DNA of 5,489 bases from Candidatus Hermodarchaeota archaeon (GCA_048886185.1 JBHLKY010000063.1:1-5489); one strand, 5' to 3'; positions 1 through 5,257 are shown, counted from the first letter of the stretch. Notes: generated from the letters alone by a model not told the origin. Made by a program: numbers and translations.

Positions 1-1388
1 TCCACTCGCCACTGATTCGTTGGACGGCCAAGAATCAGGTATGCTTGTCCTGATCCACTTCCTGCTTCCCAACTACCCTTTGCTCCAATTATTATATCAT
101 CATACCCATCTTTATTGGTATCACCAACGATCGCTACTGCATTTCCTGAGTTATACAAGTTATCTTCTCCGATAAAGGAGGCACTAGCTTCAGCTAGGTC
201 TATATCCATTTGCCATTGATTTGTTGGCCGACCGAGAATCAAGTACGTCTGACCTGCACCGACTCCTCCCTCCTCATTCCCGCTTGCTCCAATCACAATA
301 TCATCAAAACTATCATTATTAACGTCTCCAGCACCTGTTACAGCGAATCCCGAATAATCAAAGCCATCTTCCCCAATGAAAGAGGCGTTGGCTTCAGATA
401 GATCCATATCCATTTGCCATTGATTTGTTGGCCGACCGAAAATCAAGTATGTTTGGCCTGCACCAAGTCCTCCCTCATCATTCCCGCTTGCTCCAATCAC
501 AATATCATCAAAACTATCATTATTAACGTCTCCAGCACCTGCTACAGCCCGTCCTGAATAGTCAAGGCTATCTTCCCCAATGAAAGATGCATTGGCTCTA
601 GATAAATCTATATCCATTTGCCATTGGTTTGTTGGCCGACCGAGAATCAAGTACGTCTGACCTGCGCTGGATCCTCCCTCATCATTCCCACTTGCTCCAA
701 TCACTATATCATCAAAACTATCATTATTAACGTCTCCTACTCCTGCAACGGACCATCCTGAACTATCAGAATATTCTTCTCCGATAAAGGAGGCATTAGC
801 TTCAGCTAGGTCTATGTCTATTTGCCATTGATTTGTTGGCCGACCGAAAATCAGATATGTTTGGCCCGCATCATTTCCTCCCTCCTCATTCCCGCTTGCT
901 CCAATTACTATATCATCATAACCATCGTTATTAACATCACCTGCACCTGCTACCGCAAAACCAGAATTATCATGGCTATTTTCCCCAATAAAGGAAACAT
1001 CAGCTTCTGACAAGTTAATATCCATCCGCCACAGAGTAGTTGGACGACCAAAGATAAGGTAAGTTTTTCCAGCATTTTCTCCCCCCTCATTATTTGATAC
1101 TGCTCCAATTATAATATCATCATAACCATCATTATTAACATCACCCACACCCGCCACGGCCCATCCAGATATGTCCTCACTTTTTTCTCCAATGAAAGAA
1201 GCGTTAACTTTTCCTAGATTTGTATCCAAATGCCACTGATTAGCAGAGAGCTGGGGGAGTTTTGTAGTTTCATCTTTAATACATTTTATAGCTTCTGATG
1301 GGTCATTATTAGAGGTTAAAGGTTGATAGAAGTTAATTAACATTCCTAGAATGAATAGCCAAACTATCAAACATGGGATAACTTTCAT
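1..1388 (-). CDS. Secreted/surface FG-GAP repeat protein (integrin-alpha/GPI-PLD-type Ca2+-binding beta-propeller); 3' end lies outside the window
   Basis: Manual translation from ATG at 1388-1386 stays open for 462 codons to the window edge (nearest upstream in-frame stop TGA at 1424-1422). Begins MKVIPCLIVWLFILGMLINFYQPLTS (hydrophobic), followed by repeats such as ANASFIGEDSLDYSGRAVAGAGDVNNDSFDDIVIGASGNDEGGLGAGQTYLIFGRPTNQWQMDMDLSE. These carry the FG-GAP pattern (SG.aVAgaGD...IGA...aG..YLi.G) and the D-x-N-x-D-(G/S)-x-x-D Ca2+ loop. Confidence 0.95.
   Translation of the reverse strand, partial: MKVIPCLIVWLFILGMLINFYQPLTSNNDPSEAIKCIKDETTKLPQLSANQWHLDTNLGKVNASFIGEKSEDISGWAVAGVGDVNNDGYDDIIIGAVSNNEGGENAGKTYLIFGRPTTLWRMDINLSEADVSFIGENSHDNSGFAVAGAGDVNNDGYDDIVIGASGNEEGGNDAGQTYLIFGRPTNQWQIDIDLAEANASFIGEEYSDSSGWSVAGVGDVNNDSFDDIVIGASGNDEGGSSAGQTYLILGRPTNQWQMDIDLSRANASFIGEDSLDYSGRAVAGAGDVNNDSFDDIVIGASGNDEGGLGAGQTYLIFGRPTNQWQMDMDLSEANASFIGEDGFDYSGFAVTGAGDVNNDSFDDIVIGASGNEEGGVGAGQTYLILGRPTNQWQMDIDLAEASASFIGEDNLYNSGNAVAIVGDTNKDGYDDIIIGAKGSWEAGSGSGQAYLILGRPTNQWRV
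18..1241 (-). repeat. Six complete intragenic 204-bp (68-aa) tandem repeats, with a seventh starting at 17 and cut by the window edge
   Basis: The Ser codon of the SFIGE motif begins (minus strand) at 1199, 995, 791, 587, 383 and 179, an exact 204-nt period with no indels. Units begin at 1241, 1037, 833, 629, 425, 221 and 17. Long nucleotide identities exist, e.g. 274-337 is identical to 478-541. Confidence 0.97.
1311..1388 (-). other. Putative signal peptide / N-terminal membrane anchor of the FG-GAP protein
   Basis: MK followed by about 18 apolar residues (VIPCLIVWLFILGMLINF) and then a polar segment. The cleavage site cannot be assigned by eye. Confidence 0.7.
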
Positions 1389-1959: not shown

Positions 1960-2910
1960 TCATTGAGAATGATCAAATAGATCTATCTTGTTATTTCGTA
2001 GATCACGATAAAGATTTCTAACCCATTTTTCTTTCACTATTCCTTTAAGCCCCAGCCATGCCCAAAAAAAGAAATTTGACACATCTATTTCTTGTATTCG
2101 ATGATCAGGAATCTTAGTTATCGGAAGTTCCCTCCAAACTCGCTGAGATGCTAGTAAGTCATATACTGGCAATAAATCTTCTCTTATAAAAGACTCCTTC
2201 GCAGGTATCCCCAACTGCCCAATTATTTTATCAAGTTGATCTAATATTGTTTGCCAATAATCTTTCCTTTGAGACTTCTCTATAGCATCAGGTAATCCCT
2301 CTTTGAATACCATTCTTTGTAGTATAATCTTAAACTTTGTTGTATCGGGCAAAGATTTTGAAATCTCTTTGTAATGTTGAGTTATTGCCTGAGTTAATAC
2401 TTCAATTAAATCTTTGGCAAAATATCGGGATTGCGGATTATTTATAACCTCTTGATAGCATTTCAAGGCATTATTGTAACTTGAACTAAAAATTTTTTTC
2501 AGAATAGCATCAATAGAACAAAGATCAGCACTTAATTTATTAAAAACTTCCTCAATGACCCCTCGCGATGTATTGATTAAATCTTCATCTTTTCTATCAT
2601 AAATTAGGAACACAGACAACGGGGCACCATGTTCTACAATCCGTTTATCACTTGAAAATTGATTACTAATCCGCCAATTATACCATACGGTTCTATTCCC
2701 AGTTACAGCTAAGTCAGGGCCACAAAGTTCATTATAGATTGTTTTTTGTTTTTCTGTATCTAACCCCTCAATCACCCTCAATTGAAGTCGTAATGCTAGA
2801 GTGGTTAAATCCTCTTCTAAGGAATCCATGGAAAAATAATCTAGTATTATAGGACCAGAATCTATAAATGTTTGAATAAACACCTGTTGAAAAATCCTTT
2901 GCAGTGACAA
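1960..2910 (-). CDS. Hypothetical protein with an N-terminal uDENN/NPRL2-like longin domain and a helical (possibly winged-helix) C-terminus; candidate small-GTPase regulator
   Basis: 316-aa ORF from TTG 2910 (in-frame TAA just upstream at 2919-2917; alternative GTG start at 2883) to TGA at 1962-1960. Residues ~8-126 show beta1-F-x-x-x-G-P (FIQTFIDSGPIILDY), a helix, GP (ELCGPD), a strand (TVWYNWRI), a D-K-R loop, a strand (LSVFLIY) and a closing helix. This order of elements matches longin/uDENN domains as I recall them. The ORF is firm; the domain call is motif-level only. Confidence 0.6.
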   Translation of the reverse strand: MSLQRIFQQVFIQTFIDSGPIILDYFSMDSLEEDLTTLALRLQLRVIEGLDTEKQKTIYNELCGPDLAVTGNRTVWYNWRISNQFSSDKRIVEHGAPLSVFLIYDRKDEDLINTSRGVIEEVFNKLSADLCSIDAILKKIFSSSYNNALKCYQEVINNPQSRYFAKDLIEVLTQAITQHYKEISKSLPDTTKFKIILQRMVFKEGLPDAIEKSQRKDYWQTILDQLDKIIGQLGIPAKESFIREDLLPVYDLLASQRVWRELPITKIPDHRIQEIDVSNFFFWAWLGLKGIVKEKWVRNLYRDLRNNKIDLFDHSQ

Positions 2911-2990
2911 TTCAACTTACACTCTTATAAATTACATAAAATCCGACTCAACAAAGAATAAGCCATGAAATACATTATATTTGGCTACAT

Positions 2991-3038
2991 TTCTTTTCCT
3001 CTTCAAAATAGTTTTTGATGAATATAGCAGGAAAAGAA
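2991..3038. promoter_or_regulatory. Nested inverted repeat (hairpin/cruciform or operator) in the divergent intergenic region
   Basis: Perfect 10-bp arms TTCTTTTCCT (2991-3000) / AGGAAAAGAA (3029-3038) enclose a 6-bp stem TCAAAA (3003-3008) / TTTTGA (3013-3018) with a TAGT loop. The structure is seen directly; its function is inferred. Confidence 0.45.
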
Positions 3039-3076
3039 CATTCACAATTAGATTAGGTTTACATTAATCCATATTA

Positions 3077-3108
3077 TCTTAATTTTTTTATCGATAAAAT
3101 TTTTAAGA
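3077..3108. promoter_or_regulatory. 32-bp dyad, candidate operator overlapping a putative BRE/TATA of the regulator gene
   Basis: TCTTAA-TTT-TTTTATCGATAAAA-TTT-TTAAGA: a perfect 14-bp core palindrome (3086-3099) plus perfect 6-bp outer arms, so 13 of 16 symmetric pairs match. It ends 33 nt before ATG 3142. Confidence 0.6.
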
Positions 3109-3129
3109 ATATCTATTAATATTTTGGAT

Positions 3130-3134
3130 GGAGT
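3130..3134 (+). promoter_or_regulatory. Shine-Dalgarno-like GGAGT upstream of ATG 3142
   Basis: GGAGT lies 7 nt before ATG 3142, which favours this start over the ORF-track TTG at 3124. Confidence 0.5.
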
Positions 3135-3141
3135 AAAAGGT

Positions 3142-4668
3142 ATGTCAGGGCGTAAAGAAGAGAAGTTACGATCTGTTGAAGAGAGAGATCCTGCTAATGC
3201 ATATTTAGAACCAATCCCAGCTAATTCTTTTCTTAGAGCTCGCTTATTGAGATTATTCACTCAAGCGGGATTGGCAGACCTTGAAGCTCAAATATTGTTA
3301 TCTATAATTCTTCATGGGGGAAAAATGAAAACAACCTCTTTAGCAAGAGATCTAGATATTACTATATATCGTCTTCTTTCAGGTCTTCCAACTCTGGAGG
3401 TACTTGGTTTAACATCAATCTCACACCACCGTCCAAAAACTGTGATTTTGACGATTCCTTTGGAGGATATAATCCAGAGATTAGCGCTCCAAAAACTTGG
3501 TTCACAAATTAGGAGTACTCCTCAAGAAGCTCACGATCTTCTAAACAGGATTCACTTGGAATGTATTAATCATAAGGAAAATGACACTCTTAAAACTCTA
3601 ATCAATTATTATCAGAGTTTAAGGAGTCTTAAAAACCGCGTTAAGTCCATTTTTCACATTACAGATTTTGCATTTTCCTCTTTATTTCTCCAGAGTAATG
3701 AGAGCTTCATATTAGCTTCTCTAATCAAGGAAGGAGGTTATGTAGCCAAACGAAATTTCTTTAAAGAGATCATCAAACCTTTTAAGAGGGAGGATTTCCG
3801 AATTGATCTTTCAGATTTAAAGAAAGATTTAAAATATTTAGGATATTCTAATGGAGAACAAACGAAAATTGCTTCTCAAATAAAATTATATTTTGAAGAG
3901 GGAACGAATCGAATAACAATATCTGGAGAAAAAGACTTTAATATAATATTAAATAATTTAAGCCCCTTTTGTCAAACCATTTTCAGTGGATCAACAAAAG
4001 AACACGAATCCGAGAATGGACGTCATCCAAAAGCAACTGTTGCTCTTGTGCTAGTAAAATCACTAGATGAGATCGCAGATTCTCTTCACAAACCTGTTAA
4101 AGAGTTTTATTCTGTTCATAAGGATGACATTCAGCATTTAGAATATGCAATGAAGTATGTAAAATTCATTGATCCTGAAATCTTTCAATCAACTTTAAAT
4201 TCATATGATTCTTTTATTAAAAGGTTGGATAGGGAGTTAAAATATGTGAAATATGTTAGAATAAATGTCTTCCATGATAGATATCTAGAATTTATTTTAT
4301 CACGAATAATTGATAGTGAAAATAAGAAATTTCGCCTTGAATTCATTGTTAATGAAGAATTACACGATAAATTTATCAATGTTATACAGAAAGAATTACG
4401 AGCAGGATATATGACACGAGGAATCCTTCTAAATGATAGTGTTGTTTTTCTTCCAGTTTTTGAGATATTAGACGGAAATCTTATCATTATGACATACAAA
4501 GCTGAGAATAGCTGCTTAACATATTTTGAAGAGATATCGCAAAACCATCCTGCAACGTTTACTACCCTCAATAGTGATGTAGAGAATGATTTACTCCAAT
4601 TTCAAGAAATTTTTAGAAAACATCAAAATAAAGTCATACATTTAAGTAATTACATGATTAAACAGTAA
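3142..4668 (+). CDS. TrmB-family-like transcriptional regulator with tandem winged-HTH modules and a C-terminal PLD-fold effector-binding domain
   Basis: N-terminal LFTQAGLADLEAQILLSIILHGG-KMKTTSLARDLDI...GLPTLEVLGL...RPKTVILTIPLEDII fits the TrmB wHTH pattern (lGl..Ea.il..L..g...a.elA..l.i...L..L..lGl...P......p.e.i). A second copy is recognisable (FLQSNESFILASLIKEGG...HPKATVALVLVKSLDEI). The C-terminus (...VRINVF...RLEFIV...PVFEILDGNLII...LLQFQEIF) fits the non-catalytic PLD-like TrmB sensor domain. Alternative start TTG 3124; stop TAA 4666-4668. Confidence 0.75.
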   Translation: MSGRKEEKLRSVEERDPANAYLEPIPANSFLRARLLRLFTQAGLADLEAQILLSIILHGGKMKTTSLARDLDITIYRLLSGLPTLEVLGLTSISHHRPKTVILTIPLEDIIQRLALQKLGSQIRSTPQEAHDLLNRIHLECINHKENDTLKTLINYYQSLRSLKNRVKSIFHITDFAFSSLFLQSNESFILASLIKEGGYVAKRNFFKEIIKPFKREDFRIDLSDLKKDLKYLGYSNGEQTKIASQIKLYFEEGTNRITISGEKDFNIILNNLSPFCQTIFSGSTKEHESENGRHPKATVALVLVKSLDEIADSLHKPVKEFYSVHKDDIQHLEYAMKYVKFIDPEIFQSTLNSYDSFIKRLDRELKYVKYVRINVFHDRYLEFILSRIIDSENKKFRLEFIVNEELHDKFINVIQKELRAGYMTRGILLNDSVVFLPVFEILDGNLIIMTYKAENSCLTYFEEISQNHPATFTTLNSDVENDLLQFQEIFRKHQNKVIHLSNYMIKQ

Positions 4669-4681
4669 TAAGTGGTTGATT

Positions 4682-5257
4682 ATGGTTAATCCTGAACATT
4701 TAGCCCGAATAACTGGATCTCCTGTAAAATTAGTGCTTTGTGGTTTGGATTTTGCTGGAAAGACTGCTCTTATTTACCGTTGGAAAACGGGTAAATTTAA
4801 TCCAGATCTAAGTCCTACTCTATCACCTACTCTAGAAAGTGTTTCAATAAGAGGAGGATTAGTTTATGCTACTGTATTTGACTTGGGAGGGCAAAGAAAG
4901 TTACGAAAGCAATGGAAAGCATATCTTGAAAGAGGGAATGCTGTTATTTTTGTCATAGATGCGCATGATAAAGAAAGGTACTTTGAGATGAGAGATGAAT
5001 TTAATAATCGAGTTCTCCCAGAATTAGGGGAGAAACCCTGCGCAATTATTTGTAATAAACTAGATTTGATCTATAAACAGAGTCAAAAACAATCAATCAA
5101 TGAATTAATTATCGAAGTTGAGGAGACCATCCAAAAATTACTGCAATTATCCATAAAAAAGGAGGATCTTGGGCAGTTTGATGTGATAGCTACTTCAATG
5201 GTTAATGGGCTAGGATTAAAAAAGGTTGCTCAATTTTTACGTTTAAGATTAGCATAG
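4682..5257 (+). CDS. Arf/Sar1-family (Arf-related) small GTPase
   Basis: G1 GLDFAGKT (4742-4765; the Arf signature is GLDxAGKT), G2 PT, G3 DLGGQ (4880-4894) followed by RKQWKAY (Arf1 RPLWRHY), VIDAHDKERYFEMRDEF (Arf1 VVDSNDRERVNEAREEL), G4 NKLD (5054-5065), G5 TSM (5192-5200). Starts 13 nt after the regulator stop; alternative start TTG 4676; stop TAG 5255-5257. Confidence 0.93.
   Translation: MVNPEHLARITGSPVKLVLCGLDFAGKTALIYRWKTGKFNPDLSPTLSPTLESVSIRGGLVYATVFDLGGQRKLRKQWKAYLERGNAVIFVIDAHDKERYFEMRDEFNNRVLPELGEKPCAIICNKLDLIYKQSQKQSINELIIEVEETIQKLLQLSIKKEDLGQFDVIATSMVNGLGLKKVAQFLRLRLA

Follow-up and report, generated by a model that had tools for sequence, protein, structure and literature searches.

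The window analysed here, meaning the whole 5,489-nt stretch of DNA, comes from a Candidatus Hermodarchaeota archaeon (GCA_048886185.1 JBHLKY010000063.1:1-5489), whose genome of 4.84 Mb is 96% complete. The sequencing runs listed as containing this DNA are sediment metagenome DNA runs, its possible source, with no RNA run among them. It holds five genes, the last of which is represented only by the start of a tautomerase gene; the other four, with the features discussed below, are collected in Table 1. A protein of 316 residues containing a longin domain is encoded on the minus strand, and is transcribed divergently from an operon that encodes a TrmB-like protein and an Arf-family GTPase. The longin gene likely starts with the TTG at 2910, because F7, which lies upstream of the alternative GTG at 2883, is kept in more distant homologues.

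Table 1. Coordinates of the genes, domains and motifs in the window, of paralogues of the longin protein, and of proteins encoded downstream of the longin gene at other loci
Feature	Sequence	Position	Strand	Basis or remark
FG-GAP-repeat surface protein	window	3-1388	-	downstream of longin gene
Longin-plus-helical-domain protein, candidate Arf GAP, 316 aa	window	1960-2910	-	likely start TTG 2910
Longin domain, residues 1-135 (β1 β2 α1 β3 β4 β5 α2 α3)	window	2506-2910	-	AF2, Foldseek, VIA-align
G19-P20 (GP motif), β1-β2 turn, within F15-I-D17-S-G-P	window	2851-2856	-	conservation and predicted Arf interface
D88-K89-R90, β4-β5 loop; R90 (CGG 2643-2641) candidate arginine finger	window	2641-2649	-	conservation and co-fold
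All-helical C-terminal domain, residues 130-305	window	1996-2523	-	AF2
Divergent intergenic region, longin gene and TrmB-like/Arf operon	window	2911-3141	.	with imperfect palindrome 3077-3108
TrmB-like protein, 508 aa from ATG 3142 (ORF from 3124, 514 aa)	window	3142-4668	+	operon with Arf gene
Arf-family GTPase, predicted client, 193 aa	window	4676-5257	+	PF00025; 8 nt after TrmB-like stop codon
Arf P-loop, GLDFAGKT	window	4742-4765	+	
Arf switch I	window	4805-4831	+	
Arf catalytic Gln73, in DLGGQ	window	4892-4894	+	
Paralogue L023	G000 C13	59621-60661		keeps D-x-G-P and D-x-R-[IL]
Paralogue L024	G000 C11	105403-106179		keeps D-x-G-P and D-x-R-[IL]
Paralogue L025	G000 C30	8539-9336		keeps D-x-G-P and D-x-R-[IL]
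Paralogue L026	G000 C14	22217-24505		weak match, β4-β5 region only, D-K-R kept
Downstream surface protein, FG-GAP/Big	L001-3	L001 9579-11660		
Downstream surface protein, CBM_56/Reelin-like	L006	7145-10330		
Downstream protein, 876 aa	L011	6053-8683		
Downstream protein, Big_7, 1284 aa	L012	9852-13706		

Genes adjoining the longin gene

The GTPase is assigned by PF00025 (E 9.2e-29; 100.6 bits, cut-off 22.3), and among solved structures its nearest relatives are SAR1b, Arl8 and Arf1/4 (E about 1e-18). The motifs G1 (GLDxAGKT), G3 (DxGGQ) and G4 (NKxD) are invariant in five orthologues. The original prediction held that this neighbour keeps the catalytic Gln of the GGQ motif, and it does so as Gln73, again invariant in the orthologues. 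No obvious arginine of its own was seen in the P-loop and switch I motifs inspected. Switch I reads D-L-S-P-T-L-S-P-T, an LSPT repeat, where the orthologues have D-L-K-P-T-[ILF]-[SA]-S-T at equal length and without gaps; judged by this alignment, the repeat is a pattern of substitutions within a close clade and not an insertion.

The source genome (G000) also has Arf-like ORFs of 300-350 aa that carry extensions of about 150 aa (C17:28773-29762, C4:29676-30725, C6:87723-88676, C14:4556-5503 and C1:249540-250436). In most of these the extension is at the C-terminus; the C1 ORF has it at the N-terminus. These ORFs are probably the roadblock/longin-fused GTPases described for Asgard archaea. Longin-Arf fusions have been noted by Zhu et al. 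(PMC11914678).

The 508-residue protein matches no Pfam family above cut-off. Its model (pLDDT 75.7) consists of two winged-helix units and a C-terminal α/β domain. Its closest solved structures are TrmBL2 and TrmB (probability 0.96-1.0, E about 1e-3), together with the PLD-like polyphosphate kinase (PPK1). Its language-model neighbours are archaeal HTH regulators. A weak BRO1 match of the 514-aa ORF (E 6e-4; 19 bits, cut-off 35) was set aside, the fold search giving TrmB/TrmBL2 instead. The palindrome in the divergent intergenic region, with 16-nt arms that are 81% complementary and zero spacer, is a possible operator.

On the other side of the longin gene, every locus with enough sequence encodes a large secreted or surface repeat protein downstream. 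The position is kept, while the type of protein varies between loci.

Fold and conserved residues of the longin protein

The original prediction placed a longin-like domain at 2533-2889, with a D-K-R loop at the position of the arginine fingers of eukaryotic GAPs, and read it as an arginine-finger GAP for an Arf-like GTPase. This span translates as it was given (QQVFIQTFIDSGP...EEVFNKL). In the translation of ORF 1960-2910(-), Arg90 is encoded by CGG at 2643-2641 within S-S-D-K-R-I-V-E-H-G, and the F-x-x-x-G-P motif near the N-terminus is found as FIDSGP at residues 15-20 (F15-x3-G19-P20).

The protein matches no Pfam family at E<=1 and no NCBIfam family, 12 members of its own family give zero Pfam matches at E<=10 and none in NCBIfam, and phmmer and profile searches of PDB sequences returned chance matches only. 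The AF2 model (mean pLDDT 85.5, pTM 0.65, from an 18-sequence alignment) has β1 at 7-16, β2 at 19-27, α1 at 35-48, β3 at 62-67, β4 at 73-82, a short helix at 89-94, β5 at 96-104 and α2/α3 at 106-129, followed by an all-helical domain up to residue 305. This is the canonical longin topology β-β-α-β-β-β-α-α, with a five-stranded sheet. The GP motif is located in the β1-β2 turn, and R90 in the β4-β5 loop (strands 73-82 and 96-104), that is, between two strands as originally proposed.

Foldseek against the PDB gives as its top match 8yqg, the longin domain of a Lokiarchaeota Roadblock-Longin protein (E 1e-4); the FLCN-FNIP2 and NPRL2 entries, representing families to which the domain had been likened, also match and rank directly after it. 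VIA-align was used both for a second look and for an exhaustive PDB search independent of Foldseek. Longin or roadblock domains fill nearly all of its 50 top rows, the lowest of which include a few GAF-like sensor domains. The Asgard longin 8yqg has Z 10.7-11.9 (rmsd 3.7-4.0 over 147-150 residues), the Lst4 longin 9.9-10.1, NPRL3 9.4-9.5, NPRL2 8.9, the FLCN complex 8.8, chains of the C9orf72-SMCR8 complex 7.8-8.8, AP sigma 8.0-8.8 and MglB 7.8-8.2. The predicted topology, Foldseek and VIA-align all indicate a longin, and at the level of these models the fold is settled. The longins of GAP complexes (Z 8.7-10) exceed the AP sigma subunits (8.3-8.8) by a margin of just about 1, so that a GAP-type longin is not recognisable by fold alone, and the structural preference for GAP-complex longins is slight as modelled. 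Atlas searches gave clusters that carry NPR2, NPRL3, C9orf72 and uDENN families (TM 0.61 by row for those with PF06218 NPR2), and the whole protein showed weak similarity to NPRL3 (TM 0.45, 219 aligned) and C9orf72.

Residues 130-305 are covered by no solved-structure match in the VIA-align searches of the PDB. This helical domain is kept in most of the core subfamily (W219 and the NFFFWAWL helix), is truncated in P0017 and P0019, and has an unrelated C-terminus in its place in P0015.

The family is small. An exhaustive representative search found just 11 relatives, with identity down to 24%, and a profile search for further homologues added three sequences. Proteins 75-86% identical to it are assigned to Hodarchaeales or Hermodarchaeota, which makes the source an Asgard archaeon. 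At E<=1e-10, among 301 Asgard genomes sampled, 7 of the 21 belonging to its own GTDB genus have the protein family. Outside the genus it occurs once, in a genome from a different taxonomic family of the same class, and the 279 others lack it.

Within the core subfamily, F15, D17, G19, P20, D24, L62, G64, P65, D66, R73, W76, W79, D88, G95, S115 and I119 are invariant, and 11 of the 12 sequences have R90. A deeper alignment on the family profile has 35 distinct rows. Some of these come from species-level genomes, and four are distant paralogues or relatives, of which the source genome contributes three. Here D17-x-G19-P20 is found in all rows that cover the region (one N-truncated row does not), and D88 in 35 of 35. 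Arg90 is kept in 34 of the 35, distant paralogues included, and so passes the conservation check that had been proposed for it; the exception is P0017, a truncated protein of 247 aa, which has Ile. R73, W76 and W79 are specific to the subfamily: the paralogues lack them, along with most of G64-P65-D66. The conservation of D-x-G-P and D-x-R, as far as can be judged from the alignment, is more than chance. The motifs that survive deep divergence are exactly the pair, a GP before β2 and an arginine, by which GAP longins have been defined (PMC12290439).

The paralogues in the source genome were found by the family profile at E 7e-10 to 2e-2 (Table 1). L026 is a TPR protein of 763 aa with a C-terminal longin-like region, and adjoins a small-GTPase ORF (C14:21498-22178). 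L023, L024 and L025 have no GTPase within 12 kb.

Gene linkage and the predicted longin-Arf complex

The longin gene, a gene for a TrmB-like protein of about 510 aa and one for an Arf of about 190 aa form a module that occurs in about ten loci or genomes, in two arrangements. The divergent arrangement is that of the window, of L001-3 (longin 78% identical to the window copy), of L006/7 (about 25-29%), and of genomes G102 (the same as L011), G280, G130, G238 and G214. A co-directional, tightly spaced trio is found in G250:C369 and on the P0019 contig. In L012, 5.5 kb separate the longin gene from the rest of the module. The module contains no second longin gene.

The partners are orthologous. 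The Arf copies are 43-86% identical with Gln73 invariant, and the proteins of about 510 aa are still 37% identical (E 5e-101) where the longins are only about 25-29% identical; synteny holds down to a longin identity of about 25-30%. P0013 (L004, 39% identical) is an exception, with a different small GTPase near it and the orthologous Arf not nearby; the second exception is a distant relative, L034, whose contig is short. The source genome has about 32 small-GTPase ORFs, which puts the expected chance of finding one less than 5 kb away to either side at roughly 7% for each locus. The linkage is not due to chance.

The longin of P0019 (517 aa), like that of L033 (G250:C369 1851-5650), is preceded by an N-terminal ectodomain of about 260 aa and a TM helix, with a basic stretch after the helix. 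The helical C-domain is absent from this variant, and a protein of about 540 aa and the Arf are encoded co-directionally with it. Its sequence suggests a membrane-tethered form of the longin.

Residues 1-186 of the longin protein were co-folded with the adjacent Arf, GTP and Mg. The ipSAE was 0.63 (0.63, 0.59 and 0.67 in the separate runs), against 0.03 for the best control. In a calibration made without custom alignments or riding ligands, both of which were used in this co-fold, 58 of 80 solved complexes attained this mark, as did 2 of 110 mismatched pairs. Agreement between the runs covers 68% of contacts or more, with a partner pLDDT never below 85. With an unrelated protein in place of the Arf the score was 0.00.

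On the longin side, the predicted interface consists of residues 15, 17-21, 36-47 (α1), 88-91 and 94-97; on the Arf side, it consists of 25-26 (D25-F26, P-loop), 44-52 (switch I) and 73-79 (switch II). The residue pairs of lowest error are R90-P47 and R90-F26, together with Q73 and each of F15, D17, S18 and G19. R90 is thus placed on F26 of the P-loop and P47 of switch I, a placement relative to Arf residues and not to the nucleotide, and the GP turn is predicted to lie against Q73, K75, L76 and P47. Of the 21 conserved positions, eight belong to the interface, which takes up 22 positions of the 135-residue domain (hypergeometric p = 0.007). R73 was rejected as an alternative finger: it starts β4, takes no part in the predicted interface, and varies in the paralogues. 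The pose may in part reproduce solved platforms of longin or roadblock domains with GTPases.

Function and comparison with known systems

On the basis of these observations, we hypothesise, with a probability of roughly 0.6, that the 316-residue protein is a longin regulator of the FLCN/NPRL2/SMCR8 type which acts as an arginine-finger GAP for the adjacent Arf. The original reading is to that extent supported computationally. The longin domain would dock on the GTP-bound Arf encoded 1.8 kb away. Its D-x-G-P turn between β1 and β2 would pack on switch II and the catalytic Gln73, while the β4-β5 loop would put Arg90 beside the P-loop and switch I, pointing toward the phosphates. Insertion of Arg90 would then speed GTP hydrolysis. 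Binding of the Arf through the GP/Arg face is quite likely, and is more secure than catalysis. Catalysis and a preference for one nucleotide state are inferred; the helical C-domain and the TrmB-like protein may also have a role. The conserved synteny with the orthologous Arf lends the GAP reading independent support. Against it, there is no link at sequence level to the eukaryotic GAP longin families. Furthermore, the eukaryotic GAP longins act as heterodimers of two longins that carry DENN or NPRL C-domains, whereas the module lacks a second longin and the C-domain is all-helical. The narrow structural margin over AP sigma, the Ile of P0017 at position 90 and the lack of the orthologous Arf near P0013 also count against it.

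The main rival accepts the docking and differs over its consequence: the longin would bind the Arf on the usual platform surface as a GEF, effector or scaffold, with R90 and the GP motif serving binding. Most longin/roadblock platforms are indeed GEFs or scaffolds (PMC10933270), Mon1-Ccz1, TRAPP and AP sigma score much like the GAP longins in the structural comparison, and synteny and the co-fold speak for binding, not for catalysis. A non-catalytic or GEF-type platform is nevertheless rather unlikely. The GP motif is specific to GAP longins and is absent from the adaptin, TRAPP and DENND longins (PMC12290439), and an arginine conserved across the superfamily is predicted to sit against the P-loop and switch I with the catalytic Gln next to it, an arrangement typical of a finger and not of an exchange wedge.

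A different client is less likely. Here the longin would be of GAP type, with another small GTPase, for example a Rag-like one, as its real client, and the linkage to the Arf would reflect shared regulation. The numerous small-GTPase ORFs of the genome, several with longin/roadblock extensions, the action of FLCN and NPRL2 on Rags, and the different GTPase near P0013 would all fit. This becomes quite improbable when it is considered that the same orthologous Arf accompanies the longin through at least nine loci and two gene orders, and that the co-fold with an unrelated protein scored 0.00, a control that does not extend to paralogous GTPases. The absence of any Pfam or NCBIfam annotation would even be compatible with a protein unrelated to GTPases, whose motifs are structural and whose neighbourhood is incidental. 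We consider this very improbable, given that the conserved residues cluster on one surface, which is the predicted Arf interface, and that synteny persists at such low identity.

If the arginine-finger GAP reading is true, then arginine-finger catalysis by longins predates eukaryotes and can be carried out by a single small subunit. Earlier work found that Asgard GTPase genes rarely adjoin their regulators, and the pairs are therefore hard to predict. The present locus offers one concrete, expressible pair, the 316-aa longin and the 193-aa Arf, with named residues to probe (R90, G19/P20, D88 and Q73 of the Arf). A wider reading, unlikely as a whole, is that the trio is a self-contained archaeal GTPase switch tied to gene regulation, a one-chain forerunner of FLCN/GATOR1/CSW that works on Arf and not on Rag. 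The Arf could control, or be read out by, the co-transcribed TrmB-like winged-helix DNA-binding protein, and the divergently transcribed single-subunit longin GAP could reset the switch. In the variant tethered to the membrane behind an ectodomain, the longin could be a GAP coupled to a surface receptor.

The comparison with characterised systems is as follows. NPRL2 (in GATOR1, Arg78) and FLCN (Arg164) resemble the 316-residue protein in being catalytic longin subunits with a GP motif and a loop arginine finger, which we take to lie between β4 and β5 of the longin domain. They differ in their clients, which are Rag heterodimers (RagA/B, RagC/D) and not Arf, and in being obligate heterodimers (with NPRL3 and FNIP, respectively); their Pfam models (PF06218 and PF11704) do not match the 316-residue protein. 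MglB, the roadblock GAP of MglA in Myxococcus, is likewise a prokaryotic protein of the roadblock/longin superfamily and uses the same platform surface on a small GTPase. It is a roadblock homodimer that is not known to have a GP motif or to supply an arginine, and it repositions residues of MglA itself. SMCR8, an Arf GAP with Arg147, shares the longin fold, the GP motif with a loop arginine, and an Arf-family client that has the catalytic Gln. In the C9orf72-SMCR8-WDR41 entries 7MGE and 6LT0, chain C, whose subunit identity was left unassigned in the comparison, gave Z 8.4-8.8. SMCR8 differs in requiring another longin, C9orf72, which carries a WD motif, and in its DENN C-domain, whereas the module has no partner longin, and there is no detectable sequence similarity between the two proteins.

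The source genome has a PF11704 (Folliculin) protein of its own, of 437 aa (L008 625-1938(-), equal to G000 C6 about 93398-94711), with H-G-P and D-P-E-A-R-G motifs. A 158-aa ORF (L008 2508-2984) adjoins it, and the Arf-like ORF with a C-terminal extension at C6:87723-88676 is about 4.7 kb away. PF06218 (NPR2) has no match in the genome. Comparison of the 316-aa family with the PF11704 protein by hhalign was not significant (probability 0.7%), and the pairwise score was within 1.7 SD of shuffles. A phmmer search of the PDB with the PF11704 protein did not return FLCN, and thus provides no transitive residue alignment to FLCN R164. Because neither the Pfam models nor hhalign place the 316-residue protein with these families, and because the genome has a separate PF11704 protein, we regard it as a new subfamily of Asgard GAP-like longins and not as an orthologue of folliculin or NPRL2.

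The class of GAP-like Asgard longins is itself already published. Abundant NPRL2-like longins and FLCN-like proteins have been described in Asgard archaea, with conserved neighbourhoods missing for most of their genes (Liu et al., bioRxiv 10.1101/2020.10.19.343400), and the same lack was noted in strain MK-D1 (Tran et al., PMC10933270). More recently, a GP motif in the loop preceding β2, spatially adjoining an arginine finger, was found in 15 Asgard longins, with ArfR or Rag clients left open (Traffic 2025, PMC12290439). The protein described here is like these FLCN/SMCR8-type or NPRL2-like longins in being a stand-alone longin with a GP before β2, an arginine in the same spatial arrangement, and a proposed GAP role toward ArfR or Rag GTPases (PMC12290439; 10.1101/2020.10.19.343400). 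It differs in that its subfamily goes undetected by PF11704 and PF06218, has the loop D-[KPS]-R-[IV] in contrast to the D-P-E-A-R-G of the PF11704 protein in the source genome, bears a distinct helical C-domain, and has a conserved gene partner, generally lacking according to those papers. What is new is thus a narrow-clade subfamily, invisible to Pfam, with a named candidate Arf client; its contribution is a specific conserved pairing of longin and Arf, a third conserved partner, and predictions at the level of single residues.
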